Assembly: GCF_030013595.1 (NCBI RefSeq)
Contig: NZ_CP122768.1
Origin: Escherichia coli
GTDB lineage: Bacteria > Pseudomonadota > Gammaproteobacteria > Enterobacterales > Enterobacteriaceae
Reading direction: 5' to 3' (one strand)
Length of the DNA stretch: 64,000 nucleotides
Shown here: positions 4,107-16,729 of the stretch, one piece after another
How the letters are laid out: the number at the start of each line of letters is the position of its first letter
Numbering within the stretch: position 1 is the first letter of the stretch
Made by a program: the position numbers and the translations under genes
Notes under the pieces: generated by a model
Told to the model about the DNA's origin: nothing
The model's database searches: none
The model's input: the letters and a program-made list of their open reading frames with translations, nothing else

Positions 4107-4183
4107 GTTGGATCCTTACCGGTAAATCGTGCCGGTTAAAAGCGGCGTGAAGATGGGGATTCTTAAGTGGATAATGGTGCGCG

Positions 4184-4300
4184 CTGATGCCCTCACCCCG
4201 GCCCTCTCCCACAGGGAGAGGGAGAAAACCTGCGCCATATTCACCTCCGCGCTCAATCGGTCCCCTCGCCCCTTTGGGGAGAGGGTTAGGGTGAGGGGCA
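4184..4300. repeat. Inverted pair of GC-rich palindromic intergenic repeats (core CCCTCACCC..CCCTCTCCC-N4-GGGAGAGGG)
   Basis: Two units in opposite orientation at 4189-4224 and 4262-4298; the same family recurs 5 more times in the window. Confidence 0.85.
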
Positions 4301-4311
4301 AAGCGCGCCCC

Positions 4312-4611
4312 TCATTTCCCCTTCGGCGACAACTGCTTCACAATCATCGCCGCGATCCCAATCCCGTGCTGCTGCGCCAGGGTGTTACACAACTCATCGT
4401 CATAAAACCCCTGCATCATGCGCACCGAATCGCTGTTAAACGGGTTATCTTTCGAATCGAACAACTCGTTGGTTTTGCGCATCTCTTTGAGCATATTGCG
4501 TAAAAAAATCGCCTCAAACTGTTCGGCGGCCTGCCTGATATCATTGGCCTGAACCTTCGGCCCCATTAACGCATCGCTGCCGTCAATCCCGCCGCTGCCG
4601 TTAACTTTCAT
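4312..4611 (-). CDS. lfgJ: FlgJ rod-binding domain protein (no muramidase domain)
   Basis: 99 aa; motif FEAIFLRNMLKEMRKT typical of the FlgJ N-terminal rod-binding domain; lies between lfgI and lfgK. Confidence 0.8.
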   Translation of the reverse strand: MKVNGSGGIDGSDALMGPKVQANDIRQAAEQFEAIFLRNMLKEMRKTNELFDSKDNPFNSDSVRMMQGFYDDELCNTLAQQHGIGIAAMIVKQLSPKGK

Positions 4612-10684: not shown

Positions 10685-11020
10685 TTATTTCCCTTCAATG
10701 GCCTCTCTGATGCCGCTGATTTGCAGATTCAGAAAGGTCAGACTGCTTTGATAATCCATACTATTTTGTGAAAACCGCGCCTGTTCACTGTTCAGCTCCA
10801 CGGTGTTGCCATCTTCCGACGGCTGCATCGGCACGCGGTACTGGACATCCACCGCCGCGTTATTTGCCCGTTGCATCTCCCTGGCAAAATCAATATCTTT
10901 AGCCTTGAAATTTGGCGTATCGACGTTCGCCAGATTCGCAGTCAGTAGCTCGGTCCTCTCAAGACGTAACTTCACTGCCTGCGGATGCACTCCCAATGCT
11001 TGTTGAAAACTGATCCCCAT
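10685..11020 (-). CDS. lfgB: Flagellar rod protein FlgB
   Basis: Start set at the internal ATG (11020) because the predicted sigma-54 promoter lies at 11057-11072; an upstream ATG at 11050 is the alternative; motif LANVDTPNFKAKDIDF. Confidence 0.8.
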   Translation of the reverse strand: MGISFQQALGVHPQAVKLRLERTELLTANLANVDTPNFKAKDIDFAREMQRANNAAVDVQYRVPMQPSEDGNTVELNSEQARFSQNSMDYQSSLTFLNLQISGIREAIEGK

Positions 11021-11056
11021 TCTCTGCGTCACTCCTGCTTCAATCCGCATACGCTA

Positions 11057-11072
11057 AGCAATCGCTGTGCCA
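11057..11072 (-). promoter_or_regulatory. Sigma-54 (-24/-12) promoter for the lfgB operon
   Basis: Minus strand reads TGGCAC-AGCGA-TTGCT, an exact match to TGGCAC-N5-TTGC, about 35 nt upstream of the lfgB start; a sigma-54 activator (lafK) is encoded in the locus. Confidence 0.6.
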
Positions 11073-11101
11073 TTTTTTAAGTGACTGATGAGAAAGGGTT
11101 T

Positions 11102-11839
11102 ATGAGTTTTCAATTTTGCAGGCGGAAGTTTTATTTCCTCCTGGCGCTGACCTTACCGGGCTACGCCGCCGTCCACCCCGTGCAACACAGCGCGCGGGAA
11201 CAAGTCAACGCCCAGGTACTGAATGCCGCGAGCCAGGAAATTGAATCGCTGGCGCAACAGCGGCGCTGGCATGACTATCGCTACACCTTTAAGGTCTATA
11301 TTCCCTCGCAGATTGCGACCGCCGCCCCCTGTGCGACTACACCCGGCGTCACGCTCACTTCGCCTGCGGAAATCACCCTCAACCGGATGAACTTCACCGT
11401 CAGTTGCCCGCAAAGCTGGCAGATGAACGTGGCGGTGCGCCCGGATGTTCTGGTGCCGGTGGTAATGGCGAAGTCACTGGTTGCCCGCGACACGCCGCTC
11501 ACGGCAAATGATGTGGAGTTGAAGCCCTACAACGTCAGCGCCCAGCGCCGCAATGTGTTGATGGATCCCGATGACGCGATTGGTTTCAGCAGTAAACACG
11601 CGCTGCAACCGGGCAGGCCCATCACCAAAGAAGAGCTGGTTTCGCCAGTGCTGGTCGAACGCGATCAGCCGGTGATGATTGTTTACCAGAGCGCGGGGAT
11701 CACCGCCTCGATGCCCGGCGTGGCGCTGAAAAATGGTCGCAAAGGCGAGATGGTGAAAGTGCGTAACGCCAGCAGCCAGCGGGTCATCAGCGCGATGGTG
11801 GCGGAAAGCGGCGTGGTAACAACGGTAAGCGCGGAGTAA
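11102..11839 (+). CDS. lfgA: Flagellar P-ring formation chaperone FlgA
   Basis: 245 aa with signal peptide, divergent from lfgB; ATG at 11102 preceded by agaaaggg. Confidence 0.8.
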   Translation: MSFQFCRRKFYFLLALTLPGYAAVHPVQHSAREQVNAQVLNAASQEIESLAQQRRWHDYRYTFKVYIPSQIATAAPCATTPGVTLTSPAEITLNRMNFTVSCPQSWQMNVAVRPDVLVPVVMAKSLVARDTPLTANDVELKPYNVSAQRRNVLMDPDDAIGFSSKHALQPGRPITKEELVSPVLVERDQPVMIVYQSAGITASMPGVALKNGRKGEMVKVRNASSQRVISAMVAESGVVTTVSAE

Positions 11840-12026
11840 TTTGCTGTAATACCGCGTAGCATATGTATGACTAGCTCCCAATATTCTGACTTTCTGACAA
11901 ATTTCATTGTGTATTTTGGATAATTATTGAGCACTCAATCACTACTGTTTAAATATCCAGATGATAACTATTTCATCTGGGTCAAATGAGTGATATTGTA
12001 TCACCAATAAGACCTACGGGGGTGCT

Positions 12027-13451
12027 ATGTCTGAATTTGAATTGCTCGTGAAAGATCTTCTTTTAAAATCAGAAGAAGACGAGAAAAAGCGACAAGAAAA
12101 AGATCGAGAATTAATTTCAAAGGTTCTTGAAATCTATGATCAAAAATATGTTGCAGAACTCCTACGAAAAGTAGGAAAAAATGAATGGAGCAGAGAAACA
12201 CTTAACCGTTGGATAAATGGTAAGTGTAACCCTAAACAATTAACTTCTGCTGAGGAAACTTTACTTCGAAAGATGCTTCCAGAACCTCCCGAACATCATC
12301 CTAACTATACATTTCGTTTTATTGATTTATTCGCAGGGATTGGTGGTATTCGTAAAGGCTTCGAAAATATTGGTGGGCAGTGTGTTTTTACTAGCGAATG
12401 GAATAAAGAAGCGGTAAGAACCTACAAAGCTAATTGGTTTAATGATGAACTAAATCATAAATTTAATCTTGATATACGAGAAGTCACTTTAAGTGATAGA
12501 GATGATGTTTCCGAAATGGAAGCCTATAATCATATAGACAAAAATATTCCAGATCATGATGTCCTTCTGGCCGGTTTTCCATGTCAGCCCTTTAGTCTGG
12601 CTGGGGTAAGCAAGAAAAATTCTCTGGGGCGTGCACATGGTTTTGAATGTGAGGCACAAGGAACACTATTTTTTGATGTCGCTCGAATTATTAAATCAAA
12701 AAAACCAGCTATTTTTGTGCTTGAGAATGTGAAGAACCTTAAAAGTCATGATAAAGGTAAGACTTTTAAAGTCATCATGGAAACACTCAATGAATTAGGG
12801 TATGAAGTCGCCGATGCTGGTGTGACTGGCTCAGATGATCCTAAAATTATAGATGGAAAACATTTTTTACCCCAACATCGTGAGCGTATAGTGTTGGTAG
12901 GATTTCGTAGGGATCTAAATATTCACAAGGATTTCACGTTACGAAATATTAACCGCTTTTACCCTCAAAACAGGCCAACATTTGGTGAATTATTAGATCA
13001 TGATGTTGACGACAAATATATTTTGACTCCAAGGTTATGGGAATATCTTTACAATTATGCAAAAAAACATGCAGCAAAAGGAAATGGATTTGGTTTTGGT
13101 TTAGTGGATCCTAAAAATCCAGATAGTATCGCACGAACGCTGTCTGCTCGTTACCATAAAGATGGCTCTGAAATACTGATCGATCGTGGCTGGGATAAGG
13201 CTGTCGGTGAAATCGATTTTAGTAATCCAGCGAATCAAGAGAATCGACCAAGAAGACTGACACCTCATGAATGTGCCAGGTTAATGGGTTTTGAAAAACC
13301 AGGGGGAAGACCTTTTAGAATACCTGTATCAGATACTCAAGCTTATAGACAATTTGGGAACTCAGTTGTTGTGCCAGTATTTGAAGCTGTAGCAAGATTA
13401 CTAGAACCGTACATACAAAAGGCTGTCAGCATGCAAGTTATTAACGATTAA
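12027..13451 (+). CDS. DNA (cytosine-5)-methyltransferase, Dcm / M.EcoRII-like
   Basis: 474 aa; C5-MTase motifs [40 protein letters not shown]; close to E. coli Dcm along its length; AT-rich codon usage unlike its neighbours. Confidence 0.9.
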
Positions 13452-13475
13452 TAATAATTAACTTTCACTATTGTG

Positions 13476-13497
13476 AGGCCTTTTTTATTAAAGGCCT
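13476..13497. terminator. Hairpin between the convergent methyltransferase and restriction enzyme genes
   Basis: aggccttt-tttatt-aaaggcct: 8 bp perfect stem in an AT-rich context. Confidence 0.5.
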
Positions 13498-13538
13498 CTA
13501 AATATATAATCATAAGTTATTATAAGTATACTTTTATA

Positions 13539-14744
13539 TTATATAAAATCTTCATACAGCGTTATTAACTGTGTGATAAAACCCTCTAACGTTAATAATC
13601 CATCCCTGATTTCCTCCGGATATTTTTTATGAAGAGGGGAAGGTACAACCAAGGTGACACCTTCAGCTCTCATTTCGTTAAATTGAGCAACTGAGACACC
13701 CTCTTGTAAGGTAAACAAATATATTTTGTTGATTTTATTTGCTTCATTGAGTGCCTGACGCCACCGATCCTTACATGTTGTTTTTACAGCAAGCATACGG
13801 AGTTTTTCTCTTGGAAAGTGATCATCATGGTAAGCTGCCGCTGATGGAAAAAGAAAATCGGGTTTCTTTTTTCCTTCAGTAATACATTGAGTAGCAAAAT
13901 GATGCAGTCCATGCTCAATAAAAATTTGCTCAAGATGTAGCTCCAGTGATTTCCCGGCTCGAGATTTTCTTCGATTACTAACAGAGTTAGCCATAGCTAT
14001 AAAATCATCTACAGAACCAAACCCTTGACGGATGATGTCCAGTACGTGAATTTCTTCAACCATTAGAAAGAGATCATATTCAATACGGCGGCGTTCTAAA
14101 AGTTGGTCATCTGGACTGGTTACGCCTGTTGGGTAATAACCCGCAGCATATTGAATAATCTCTAAGCCAGAAGGAAAGCTATGTTTCCAGCTTTCCGGAA
14201 TAACATATTCCTTTTGAGAGATTTTTGGCCTTGATGCGAGTACACCAAGTATTTCACTGGCAGGCCCAAACATTAAAGTTCCAGGAATGATCTCCCCAAT
14301 AGCTGATTCCAGTACATCCTCTTCTTCTGGGCTAACACAAACCCATACATCAACACTTTTGCTGTCTCTCCCTGGCTCATGTTCAAACGCAAGCACAGAC
14401 AAAGCACCTGTATTTTCCGGATCCTGTAGGGGACTGCCAGCCCCCCACCGAGTGATGCGTTTTTCATTTCTTGTTTGCCCGAAATACTTATTATTGTAGT
14501 AAATAGCGCGAACCTCACTGTCTACACATTCATGAGAGGAATAAGTTGCGCGCAATAAAACCGAAGGATTTTTTTCTGACGTATGATCTATAGATGGGAA
14601 AAGTTCAGCGACGATACCAGAAGGGATATATACCCCCACTTGATGCCCTCCTGTTGCACCAGTGTCGTTTGCTGAAAGACGTTTAATATAGAGATAGTTG
14701 TTACCACCGACCTTATCAAGCAGCCAATCTTGTAATCCTGACAT
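13539..14744 (-). CDS. Type II restriction endonuclease, EcoRII family (expected target CCWGG)
   Basis: 401 aa; N-terminal YIKRLSANDTGATGGHQVGVYIPS and the remainder match my recollection of EcoRII; convergent with the Dcm-like gene as in EcoRII systems; AAGGA ribosome-binding site upstream. Confidence 0.8.
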   Translation of the reverse strand: MSGLQDWLLDKVGGNNYLYIKRLSANDTGATGGHQVGVYIPSGIVAELFPSIDHTSEKNPSVLLRATYSSHECVDSEVRAIYYNNKYFGQTRNEKRITRWGAGSPLQDPENTGALSVLAFEHEPGRDSKSVDVWVCVSPEEEDVLESAIGEIIPGTLMFGPASEILGVLASRPKISQKEYVIPESWKHSFPSGLEIIQYAAGYYPTGVTSPDDQLLERRRIEYDLFLMVEEIHVLDIIRQGFGSVDDFIAMANSVSNRRKSRAGKSLELHLEQIFIEHGLHHFATQCITEGKKKPDFLFPSAAAYHDDHFPREKLRMLAVKTTCKDRWRQALNEANKINKIYLFTLQEGVSVAQFNEMRAEGVTLVVPSPLHKKYPEEIRDGLLTLEGFITQLITLYEDFI

Positions 14745-14797
14745 AAGACATCCTTATTTTTGCATAGTATCCGATTCAGATTTTTCCACATATCCAT

Positions 14798-14831
14798 CAG
14801 AACGACCAGAACGACCAGAACGACCAGAACC
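14798..14831. repeat. 9 bp tandem repeat (CAGAACGAC) x about 3.7
   Basis: cagaacgaccagaacgaccagaacgaccagaacc, 54-87 bp upstream of the restriction enzyme start codon. Confidence 0.9.
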
Positions 14832-14868
14832 AACATATCTGAACAAAAAGTAAATATGCGATAACGAT

Positions 14869-14896
14869 TAAAGTTTTGCCGCCTGTTAACCGCTTT
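14869..14896 (+). promoter_or_regulatory. Candidate sigma-28 (class 3) promoter for lfgMN
   Basis: Perfect -35 TAAAGTTT at 14869-14876; weak -10 (ACCGCTTT against GCCGATAA) after a 12 nt spacer; about 40 nt upstream of lfgM. Confidence 0.3.
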
Positions 14897-14934
14897 ACCG
14901 GAGTAACCCACCTAAATACCGAGACGAGGTTGCG

Positions 14935-15210
14935 ATGAAAATCACCCCGACTATGCCAGGCAATCGCCCGACAGTCACAACGGCAGGCTCCAGCCAGCCG
15001 CGCAAAGGCACGGCGACCACCACGACGCTAAGCGCCGACGACATTACCCAGGCGGGATTGCAGTCTGCCCAGCAAACACTGAACGACCAGCAAGAGAGCG
15101 ATATCGACAGCGATAAAGTGGCGCAAATGCAGGCGATGCTGGCCTCCGGCAGCCTGCAAGTGGACACCGAACAGTTAGCCAGCGACATGCTGAGTTTTTT
15201 CCAGAACTAA
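14935..15210 (+). CDS. lfgM: Anti-sigma-28 factor FlgM
   Basis: 91 aa, small acidic protein ending SDMLSFFQN; followed by the flgN homologue. Confidence 0.8.
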   Translation: MKITPTMPGNRPTVTTAGSSQPRKGTATTTTLSADDITQAGLQSAQQTLNDQQESDIDSDKVAQMQAMLASGSLQVDTEQLASDMLSFFQN

Positions 15211-15222
15211 GAGGCCGATGAA

Positions 15223-15651
15223 GTGAGTATCAGGTTACAACAGGTGAAGGCGTTGTTGCAGGGAATTCGTGACGATGACGCGCTGTATGATTCCCTGCGC
15301 GAACTTCTCCAGCGCCAGCGGATCTGCATGATTCGCCGCGCCAGCGAAGAGCTGCTGGCGGTAAACGAGGAGATAACCCATCACTATGAGCAGTTGCATG
15401 GGCATAGCCATCAGCGACACAGCCTGCTGAAAATGCTCGGTGTTAGCGTAAATCGTGACGGTCTGGCGCAGGTATTTGCCTGGCTTCCGGCGGTACAAAA
15501 AGCGGCAGCACAACAGTTGTGGCAACGCCTTGAGCAAAAAGCGGAACGCTGCAAAGCCTACAACGACAAAAACGGCGAGCAGTTGATTCGCCAGTATGAA
15601 TTTATTCAGTCTTTTTTAGGCAGCGAAGCGGATTTTCTGTACCAGGAATAA
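15223..15651 (+). CDS. lfgN: Flagellar export chaperone FlgN
   Basis: 142 aa helical protein; GTG start preceded by gagg. Confidence 0.75.
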   Translation: MSIRLQQVKALLQGIRDDDALYDSLRELLQRQRICMIRRASEELLAVNEEITHHYEQLHGHSHQRHSLLKMLGVSVNRDGLAQVFAWLPAVQKAAAQQLWQRLEQKAERCKAYNDKNGEQLIRQYEFIQSFLGSEADFLYQE

Positions 15652-15728: not shown

Positions 15729-15745
15729 CGGCACGCTTATTGCAC
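15729..15745 (+). promoter_or_regulatory. Sigma-54 (-24/-12) promoter in front of the hypothetical gene and glycosyltransferase
   Basis: cGGCACG-CTTA-TTGCA matches TGGCACG-N4-TTGCA with exact spacing, 34 nt upstream of the ATG at 15779. Confidence 0.6.
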
Positions 15746-15778: not shown

Positions 15779-16609
15779 ATGAGTTTTATTGAATGTTACG
15801 AACCGGAATACGTGCGCAATTTTATGACGCAATATCCCGATTCGCCTTTGTACATCCGCAAGGTGTGGAAAAACGAGATTCGCCTGAGCCTGATGCTGAC
15901 AGAGCCAGAAAGTTGCGAAGCGGTGCTCAACGATGCCAGGGCCTTTGATTTACAGCTCACCTACCGCCCGGCGGAAGAAAATGCCGCAGAGCTTTCCGCG
16001 CGCGATGCGATAGTAAACCAGGTCATTTTGAGTACCCTCACGCTCCCCGATTTAACCCCAGAGCTTTCACTATATGCCATCGGGATTTTACTCTCCCGCG
16101 CCAGCAAAATGCCGGGCAGAGACGGAGATATTCTTGCCCGTTTGACGACGCTGCCGCAGGCGCTGGCCGATCATGCGAAAAAAGGCACGCTACAGGCACA
16201 GTTCGCCCAACTTCCGCCCGTGCCACAGCTGGCGCGTCACCTGGCCACGCTACTCGGGAGTTTTACGTTTGACTGGTCGATTTTGCCGGAAAGCCCGCGC
16301 AAAACTTCGCTGCCGTTGCAGATGCCTTTGCTGGCGCTACATGACGCCAACAGCGAAGCCCTGGTGCAACAGCAGCTTCAGGCTCAGTGGCAAACCACCT
16401 GGCAACAGCATTTTGCCACCGCGCCCTGGATGATGCGTAACTGGCTGATTTACCGCGTTTACCATGAGGTGATTGGACAGGCAGACGGAGCAGATTATTG
16501 CCCGCTGGTGTGCGATTTTTATCTTATCCGCACGTTAATCAGTTTTATGGACGCTGGATGGTTCTCCGCTGCGACAGGAGGATATTTTCGCCCTTTTTGC
16601 GGTGTTTGA
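15779..16609 (+). CDS. Hypothetical protein (Flag-2 accessory)
   Basis: 276 aa ORF from the ATG after the sigma-54 promoter; the 3' end may be frameshifted (see findings). Confidence 0.55.
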   Translation: MSFIECYEPEYVRNFMTQYPDSPLYIRKVWKNEIRLSLMLTEPESCEAVLNDARAFDLQLTYRPAEENAAELSARDAIVNQVILSTLTLPDLTPELSLYAIGILLSRASKMPGRDGDILARLTTLPQALADHAKKGTLQAQFAQLPPVPQLARHLATLLGSFTFDWSILPESPRKTSLPLQMPLLALHDANSEALVQQQLQAQWQTTWQQHFATAPWMMRNWLIYRVYHEVIGQADGADYCPLVCDFYLIRTLISFMDAGWFSAATGGYFRPFCGV

Positions 16610-16729
16610 ACGCTGGCGAGAGAGTGAAAATGCGCTGTTTATTCGCCAGCAAATTCAGTCGTTATGTGCGGCAGAGCCGCTGCTTTCAGCATTTTCGCTG
16701 CTGACGTGAGTCGCTCTGTGCGCGCTTTT

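Follow-up and report, generated by a model that had tools for sequence, protein, structure and literature searches.

Does an operon for a flagellar anti-sigma factor retain a promoter of its own once foreign DNA has separated it from its upstream neighbor? The question is raised by a locus of Escherichia coli in which a restriction-modification (R-M) block lies between lfgA and lfgM, within the stretch of 64,000 nucleotides that was analysed here and is referred to as the window. The earlier note on this DNA had proposed that a sigma-28-type promoter of lfgMN survives past the insert, and this proposal is supported in silico by a conserved footprint, by further copies of the motif ahead of lfgK and lafA, and by its invariance in seven strains. 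We consider it likely that positions 14869-14897 represent a late (class-3-type) promoter of lfgMN in the Flag-2 system, read by the lateral sigma factor LafS and probably the sole promoter that lfgMN has here; very probably, lfgM would keep its own control past the insert.

The window covers the E. coli Flag-2 (lateral flagella) locus, and its closest complete genome is that of HCP5S3_I2, at 99.6% identity. The lafA, lafS and lafTU genes are found just past the left end of the window and were read from the near-identical genome (locus L004), in which lafS, encoding a sigma factor of the FliA family, is present within the Flag-2 locus (L004 8044-8760, minus strand). The genes and the insert that concern us are the following.

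10685-11020, minus strand: lfgB
11058-11072, minus strand: sigma-54 core TGGCAC-N5-TTGC with 0 mismatches, 5' of lfgB; middle-class promoter for the divergently oriented operon
11102-11839, plus strand: lfgA (TIGR03170)
11845-14859, no strand assigned: EcoRII-type R-M insert of 3,015 bp, placed after the stop codon of lfgA and before the promoter of lfgM, from alignment with uninterrupted strains
12027-13451, plus strand: Dcm-family cytosine-5 methyltransferase, the M gene (NF007772, 912 bits; PF00145; PF18284)
13475-13498, no strand assigned: hairpin with a 9-bp GC-rich stem between the convergent M and R genes (fold z -3.8; 0 of 200 shuffles as good)
13539-14744, minus strand: EcoRII-type endonuclease (EcoRII-N/EcoRII-C; PF09217; PF09019), the R gene, convergent with M and divergent from lfgM
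14926-14929, plus strand: Shine-Dalgarno sequence GAGG of lfgM, from the sequence; other loci keep (c)gaggt
14935-15210, plus strand: lfgM, anti-sigma-28 factor of the lateral (Flag-2) system, FlgM family (TIGR03824, E 6e-13; PF04316)
15223-15651, plus strand: lfgN, FlgN-type chaperone and second gene of the operon (PF05130, E 1e-18; annotated FlgN in RefSeq relatives)

The middle-class promoters of Flag-2 differ in type from the late ones, as sigma-54 cores are found before both lfgB and lafB, the latter having the core TGGCACgccttTTGC upstream in L004. A further sigma-54 core, with one mismatch (CGGCACgcttaTTGC), is located at 15729-15743 on the plus strand, 5' of the gene that follows lfgN. 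This gene, which encodes a FliB-like flagellin lysine-N-methylase (approximately 15779-16710), is frameshifted, with a 1-nt insertion at 16543 relative to the intact allele of ESC818, and is also flagged as a pseudogene in HCP5S3_I2. REP/BIME-like palindromes (of the gccggatgcggcgtaaacgccttatccggcctac and gggagagggttagggtgaggg type) fill the intergenic DNA that precedes the lfgK promoter (window approximately 4170-4330, minus strand) and lafB (L004 12540-12660, minus strand), and they vary between Escherichia lineages. At 99-100% identity, lfgB is also carried by four E. coli records labelled as plasmids, of 22-834 kb (NZ_CP104632.1, CP054241.1, CP088538.1 and NZ_AP023208.1), which are probably mislabelled chromosomal contigs.

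The bounds of the insert were set by alignment to three uninterrupted alleles. With an endonuclease that combines EcoRII-N and EcoRII-C domains and a methyltransferase of the Dcm family, the cassette belongs to the EcoRII-type type II R-M systems, and its G+C content of 0.32-0.45 compares with about 0.56 in the flanks. This part of Flag-2 has matches in 1,279 complete E. coli genomes, of which 28 have the block and the others lack it; in the uninterrupted strain ESC818 the gap between lfgA and lfgM is 80 nt. Native sequence restarts at 14860 (G[A/C]TAACGAT), leaving 9-20 nt of native DNA before the -35 box. The insert ends 9 nt before that box, and the R-M block that the earlier note had placed just upstream is real. 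The insert junctions are identical in seven insert-bearing E. coli (the window and six others), whose flanks are up to 5% divergent, and this sharing of junctions points to a single insertion event behind the cassette in all seven.

Imperfect direct repeats mark the two ends of the insert: AGTAATTTGC occupies 11835-11844, taking in the lfgA stop codon, and AGTAAATATGC occupies 14849-14859. They may have arisen as a target duplication that has since decayed, or may be the short homology through which the cassette integrated. Between the start codon of the R gene (14744, minus strand) and the lfgM promoter there is a 9-nt tandem repeat, CAGAACGAC, at 14798-14830, with 3.7 copies in the window against 1.7 in the six other insert-bearing strains, which alters the spacing in the presumed promoter region of the R gene. 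The hairpin at 13475-13498, GAGGCCTTT-tttatt-AAAGGCCTC, is not a textbook terminator, since it has no T-run on either strand; it may hinder transcripts that read through from lfgA or M, with a terminator function that is putative.

The proposed promoter itself consists of two blocks separated by a spacer.

14869-14876, plus strand: -35 block TAAAGTTT of the lfgMN promoter, exact at 8 of 8 positions
14877-14889, plus strand: 13-nt spacer tgccgcctgttaa, conserved in length and free in sequence
14890-14897, plus strand: -10 block CCGCTTTA, in which CG at 14891-14892 is the sigma-28 hallmark C-13/G-12
14904-14906, plus strand: predicted transcription start, counted from C-13 at 14891, which gives +1 at 14904

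The exact -35 block bears out the claim that a perfect -35 box is present at this place. From TAAAGTTT to the ATG of lfgM there are 59 nt, and 37 nt from the end of the -10 block. A conserved A at 14905, 8 nt after the -10 block and carrying 1.3 bits, is found beside the predicted +1, which itself would fall inside the range 14900-14910 in which the earlier note expected a transcript start. In uninterrupted strains the 80-nt spacer between lfgA and lfgM reads TAA-tttgcgcaggcgat-TAAAGTTT-tgccgcctgttaa-CCGCTTTA-ccgg...gaggttgcg-ATG, and because it contains the identical site, the site is native and was not made by the insert. Among the seven insert-bearing strains both promoter blocks are invariant, and changes are restricted to the spacer (tgTTgcc in A25) and the leader.

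The TAAAGTTT octamer is not enriched, with two copies in the window against 1.44 expected, and it was dropped as evidence because this count is at the level of chance. A search for the canonical arrangement TAAAGTTT-N11-GCCGATAA with up to three mismatches matched three unrelated sites and missed the one before lfgM. A scan of 11000-15300 for sigma-70 promoters and terminators returned nothing relevant near the site, and no sigma-70-like promoter on the plus strand after 14005. An RNA element was considered as an explanation and rejected, as an Rfam search at the lfgM promoter region returned no family and the folding of 14860-14960 is ordinary (z = +0.43).

Flag-2-type loci were collected with an LfgB probe, one genome per species, and the DNA 5' of lfgM was taken from every locus. 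The comparison takes in 22 species belonging to Escherichia, Pseudocitrobacter, Citrobacter, Phytobacter, Pseudescherichia, Enterobacter, Buttiauxella, Pantoea, Leminorella, Shewanella and Vibrio. Across these species a two-block motif, T(T/A)AAGTTT-N13-(C/T)CGCTTT(A/T), is conserved 5' of lfgM, while the spacer and the flanks drift: the -35 block holds 1.71 bits per column and the -10 block 1.38, against 0.36 in the spacer and 0.37-0.50 in the flanks. Within the -10 block the CG never varies (2.0 bits). In the Enterobacterales the lfgM loci have T(T/A)AAG(T/A)TT, 13 unconserved bases (12 in two loci) and (C/T)CGCTTT(A/T). Shewanella and Parashewanella have TTTAGTTT-N13-TCGCTATT upstream of lfgM, the lateral cluster of Vibrio campbellii has TTAATGTT-N13-TCGCCTAT, and inspection by eye gives TACAGTTT-N13-TCGCTATA at the same place in Marinobacter. 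The search with the LfgB protein returned Enterobacterales alone among its best 120 matches and did not reach Vibrio or Aeromonas. A record of Aeromonas caviae from a plasmid collection was rejected as a lateral cluster, as it represents a polar flagellar cluster, and the 2.06-Mb "plasmid" of V. campbellii looks like chromosome 2.

Several of these loci hold additional features around the motif. In Citrobacter, Enterobacter and related loci (L010-L031), a T-rich tract (gaTTTTTTgtga) resembling an UP element is found 10-17 nt before the -35 block, with about 1 bit per column; it is absent from the Escherichia alleles, and the corresponding position in the window is occupied by A/T-rich sequence at the insert edge. 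Escherichia sp. MOD1-EC7003 (L006 6128-8083) has the same insert with the methylase kept and most of the endonuclease gene gone, so that its methylase looks like an orphan derived from the cassette; here the foreign DNA stops 3-4 nt before TAAAGTTT and the promoter blocks are intact. In Enterobacter sp. ENT03 (L022 8440-9150) lfgA is separated from the lfgM promoter by about 0.7 kb of non-coding DNA that is GC-rich and repeat-like, and Shewanella sp. OPT22 (L033 6687-9044) has at this place an open reading frame of 785 amino acids, for which a Pfam scan gave no match. A second copy of the motif is present in the lfgA-lfgM gap of locus CwR94 (L029 8795-9172). In ENT03, OPT22 and MOD1-EC7003 alike, the motif stays directly joined to lfgM despite the extra DNA, and insertions seem to recur in the gap ahead of the promoter.

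The same motif is also found before other late genes. It is present 5' of lfgK in every locus examined, and in the window it takes the following form.

4138-4166, minus strand: sister promoter 5' of lfgK, TTAAGAAT-N13-CCGCTTTT, the top match of the position weight matrix at 26.0 bits

Upstream of lafA it appears as TTAAGTTT-N12-TCGTTTTT in L004, and with a 13-nt spacer in Phytobacter. A matrix was trained solely on lfgK sites from 22 non-Escherichia loci and was then scanned over the window, where the lfgK site is followed by the lfgM site at 19.3 bits and the next best match has 13.0. The lfgM site therefore ranks second of 127,942 window positions, in a comparison in which the lfgK training sites and the lfgM test sites share genomes, so that the loci are independent and the lineages are not. 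A score of 19.3 bits was attained anywhere in 3.7% of 300 first-order Markov simulations of a 64-kb window, a figure that ignores location. At 15 bits or more in thirty-two loci of 12-20 kb, the matches are almost solely the lfgK, lfgM and lafA sites, with two off-target. A 16.0-bit match, TTAAGATC-N12-TCGATTTT, is located at L004 10676-10703 (plus strand), antisense within the fliS-like gene lafC, and may represent chance or an antisense promoter. The lfgM site thus has the attributes of a late promoter, in that it lies upstream of and is oriented towards a late gene and recurs before other late genes. A text search of the literature for a published lateral consensus gave only noise. In E. 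coli, flgMN, flgKL and fliC are class-3 operons of FliA, and the flgAMN and flgMN transcription units overlap (PMC4183435). Since lfgM, lfgK and lafA are the counterparts of flgMN, flgKL and fliC, Flag-2 repeats the architecture of flag-1.

What type of sigma-28 promoter the site represents is indicated by its -10 block. A FliA matrix was built from 13 in-vivo sites of E. coli K-12, nearly all of which read ..CCGATAA (PMC4183435). With this matrix the -35 block of the lfgM site scores 12.0 bits, in keeping with the sigma-28 family, whereas its -10 block scores -2.4 bits, within the -0.1 to -3.3 of the three Flag-2 sites and far from the 8.8-14.3 of the FliA sites. C-13/G-12 is the specificity hallmark of sigma-28 promoters, and mutating either base greatly lowers the activity of the tar promoter (bioRxiv 10.1101/2020.01.02.893370). 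CCGCTTTA keeps both bases, at 14891-14892, with a distal half of CTTT where FliA promoters have ATAA and with a spacing one base over the canonical. Of the two stretches previously called the -10, AACCGCTT at N11 agrees with GCCGATAA at 1 of 8 positions and ACCGCTTT at N12 at 4 of 8. The description of the -10 as weak is accordingly right as regards the match to a FliA-type element, which is poor, but CCGCTTTA is a conserved -10 of the lateral type and is not weak in that sense. The canonical enterobacterial FliA class was rejected, as the site does not have GCCGATAA at 11-nt spacing, and the site appears to be a sigma-28-family promoter of lateral type.

LafS itself provides a possible counterpart to this altered element. 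Its best solved relatives are FliA structures (E approximately 1e-31), and the residues through which FliA touches the -10 element were taken from the structure of the sigma-28 initiation complex (bioRxiv 10.1101/2020.01.02.893370). In a pairwise alignment of LafS with FliA (6pmi), the C-13-contacting residues R58 and R74 are conserved as R67 and R82, while Q63, which contacts -11A, is replaced by P71, T69 (-9A) by G77 and H26 (-7) by K35. This pattern fits a sigma factor that would keep the reading of CG with an altered reading of the distal -10; it is a lead only, because there is an alignment gap beside this loop. The pairing of the motif with LafS rather than FliA is suggested by their co-occurrence.

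The proposed control of lfgMN would run as follows. LafS, made from the sigma-54-dependent lafB operon, would direct RNA polymerase to TAAAGTTT and CCGCTTTA across the 13-nt spacer, and transcription would begin near 14904-14906. The resulting mRNA, with some 30 nt of leader, would code for LfgM, the anti-sigma factor, and for LfgN, the chaperone. LafS would thereby make its own inhibitor, in a negative feedback whereby LfgM restrains LafS until it is exported after the hook-basal body has been built. In V. parahaemolyticus, the lateral flgM is lower in an rpoN mutant, and RpoN does not bind the flgM promoter (PMC9817140); this fits an indirect cascade from sigma-54 to sigma-28. In uninterrupted strains the flgA-type gene is adjacent and co-oriented, with an 80-nt gap, and lfgM probably also receives read-through from lfgA, as in the flgAMN/flgMN arrangement of flag-1. 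In the window lfgA and lfgM are held apart by 3,015 bp with a convergent gene and a hairpin, and since the cassette sits after the lfgA stop codon and before the promoter, lfgMN would probably be expressed from this promoter alone. We infer that read-through from lfgA into lfgM is probably lost or much reduced here, because a transcript would need to extend over 3 kb of foreign DNA, in which it would be antisense to the convergent R gene and would meet the hairpin; the earlier note's view that lfgMN is cut off from the lfgA promoter is in this respect a reasonable one. Flag-2 is not known to be expressed in E. coli.

Other readings of the site must be set against this one. The promoter could be real and yet share control with transcripts that still cross the cassette from lfgA or the methylase gene, a dual control that we regard as unlikely. 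Both of these genes are co-oriented with lfgM, and no canonical intrinsic terminator (stem plus T-run) is found on the plus strand between 11839 and 14935; such transcripts would nevertheless have to travel 3 kb, run antisense through the convergent 1.2-kb R gene and pass the stable GC-rich hairpin. Untranslated antisense RNA is a typical substrate of Rho. It is distinctly improbable that the site is read mainly by FliA of the primary flagellar system (Flag-1), through cross-talk between the two systems. The Escherichia -35 block is a perfect FliA -35 and the C-13/G-12 hallmark is present, and these would suit FliA, but the in-vivo FliA -10 blocks are CGATAA-like, with scores well apart from those of the Flag-2 sites, the motif is conserved in genera that have different primary flagella, and LafS carries P71 and G77 at the positions of FliA Q63 and T69 with the arginines kept.

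Conservation by itself does not identify the binding protein, and the blocks might be bound by another regulator, a repressor or LafZ for instance, or might form a sigma-70 promoter. We give this very little weight: two blocks with a fixed and free 13-nt spacer, a TAAAG/TTAAG -35 and the hallmark CG fit sigma-28 and not TTGACA/TATAAT, and the motif is placed exactly before three late-gene homologues. A chance resemblance without function, which would agree with the octamer count and with the failure of the canonical consensus search, is effectively refuted and hardly credible, given that both blocks are conserved across genera with a drifting spacer, that the site ranks second with an independently trained matrix and that the blocks are invariant in seven strains. 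A late promoter of lfgMN read by LafS therefore remains our preferred reading.

A broader proposal can be made tentatively, as one that is plausible and somewhat short of probable. LafS-type sigma factors may have a -10 code of their own, C-13 G-12 followed by C/T-T-T in place of the A-T-A-A of FliA, running from Vibrio and Shewanella to E. coli and matched by the changes Q63 to P and T69 to G; such a code would insulate the Flag-2 late regulon, and the insert would make lfgMN purely LafS-controlled. If so, the Flag-2 late regulon would be insulated from the FliA regulon in cells that have both systems, and the insert would turn a dually controlled lfgMN into a purely LafS-controlled one, shifting the first appearance of the anti-sigma factor. 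Strains with and without the insert represent a natural test of the share that class-2 read-through has in the timing of the anti-sigma factor. The comparison also yields a usable consensus for enterobacterial Flag-2 late promoters, T(T/A)AAG(T/A)(T/A)N-N13-YCGCTTT, which the textbook FliA consensus misses. Finally, the cassette sits in one short stretch, from the lfgA stop codon to the -35 box, and breaks neither gene nor the lfgM promoter; so harmless a landing place helps to explain its persistence with identical junctions in diverse E. coli.

With respect to known systems, an lfgMN promoter is an expected and ordinary element of flagellar clusters, and the insert is already in the literature. 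De Maayer et al. (2020) described EcoRII/Dcm genes within flag-2 in 21 Escherichia strains, a cargo that includes the same cassette, with an EcoRII-type endonuclease of 401 amino acids and a Dcm-type methylase of 474 (PMC6993521); the passages of that paper on this cargo give no exact insertion point and draw no link to the lfgM promoter.

The lateral late promoters of V. parahaemolyticus and Aeromonas, which are class-3 promoters of sigma-28(L)/LafS before flgMN(L) and lafA, belong to an orthologous gene system, and flgMN(L) is of class 3 in the lateral systems of both. In V. campbellii the regions upstream of the lateral lfgM and lfgK have TTAAT...-N13-TCGCCT.. at the same place, with a -35 of TTAAT where the enterobacterial loci have T(T/A)AAG, and a -10 of TCGCCT where they have YCGCTT. 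The closest parallel in position is the class-3 (FliA) promoter of flag-1 flgMN in E. coli and Salmonella, which shares with the Flag-2 promoter its place between flgA and flgM, its genes and its feedback logic, and which likewise has late companions before flgKL and before the flagellin gene (PMC4183435), a -35 of TAAAG type and C-13/G-12. In contrast to flag-1, the Flag-2 promoter has CCGCTTTA rather than GCCGATAA as its -10 and a spacer that is one base longer, its presumed sigma factor is LafS rather than FliA, and in the window a 3-kb R-M cassette splits lfgA from the promoter.
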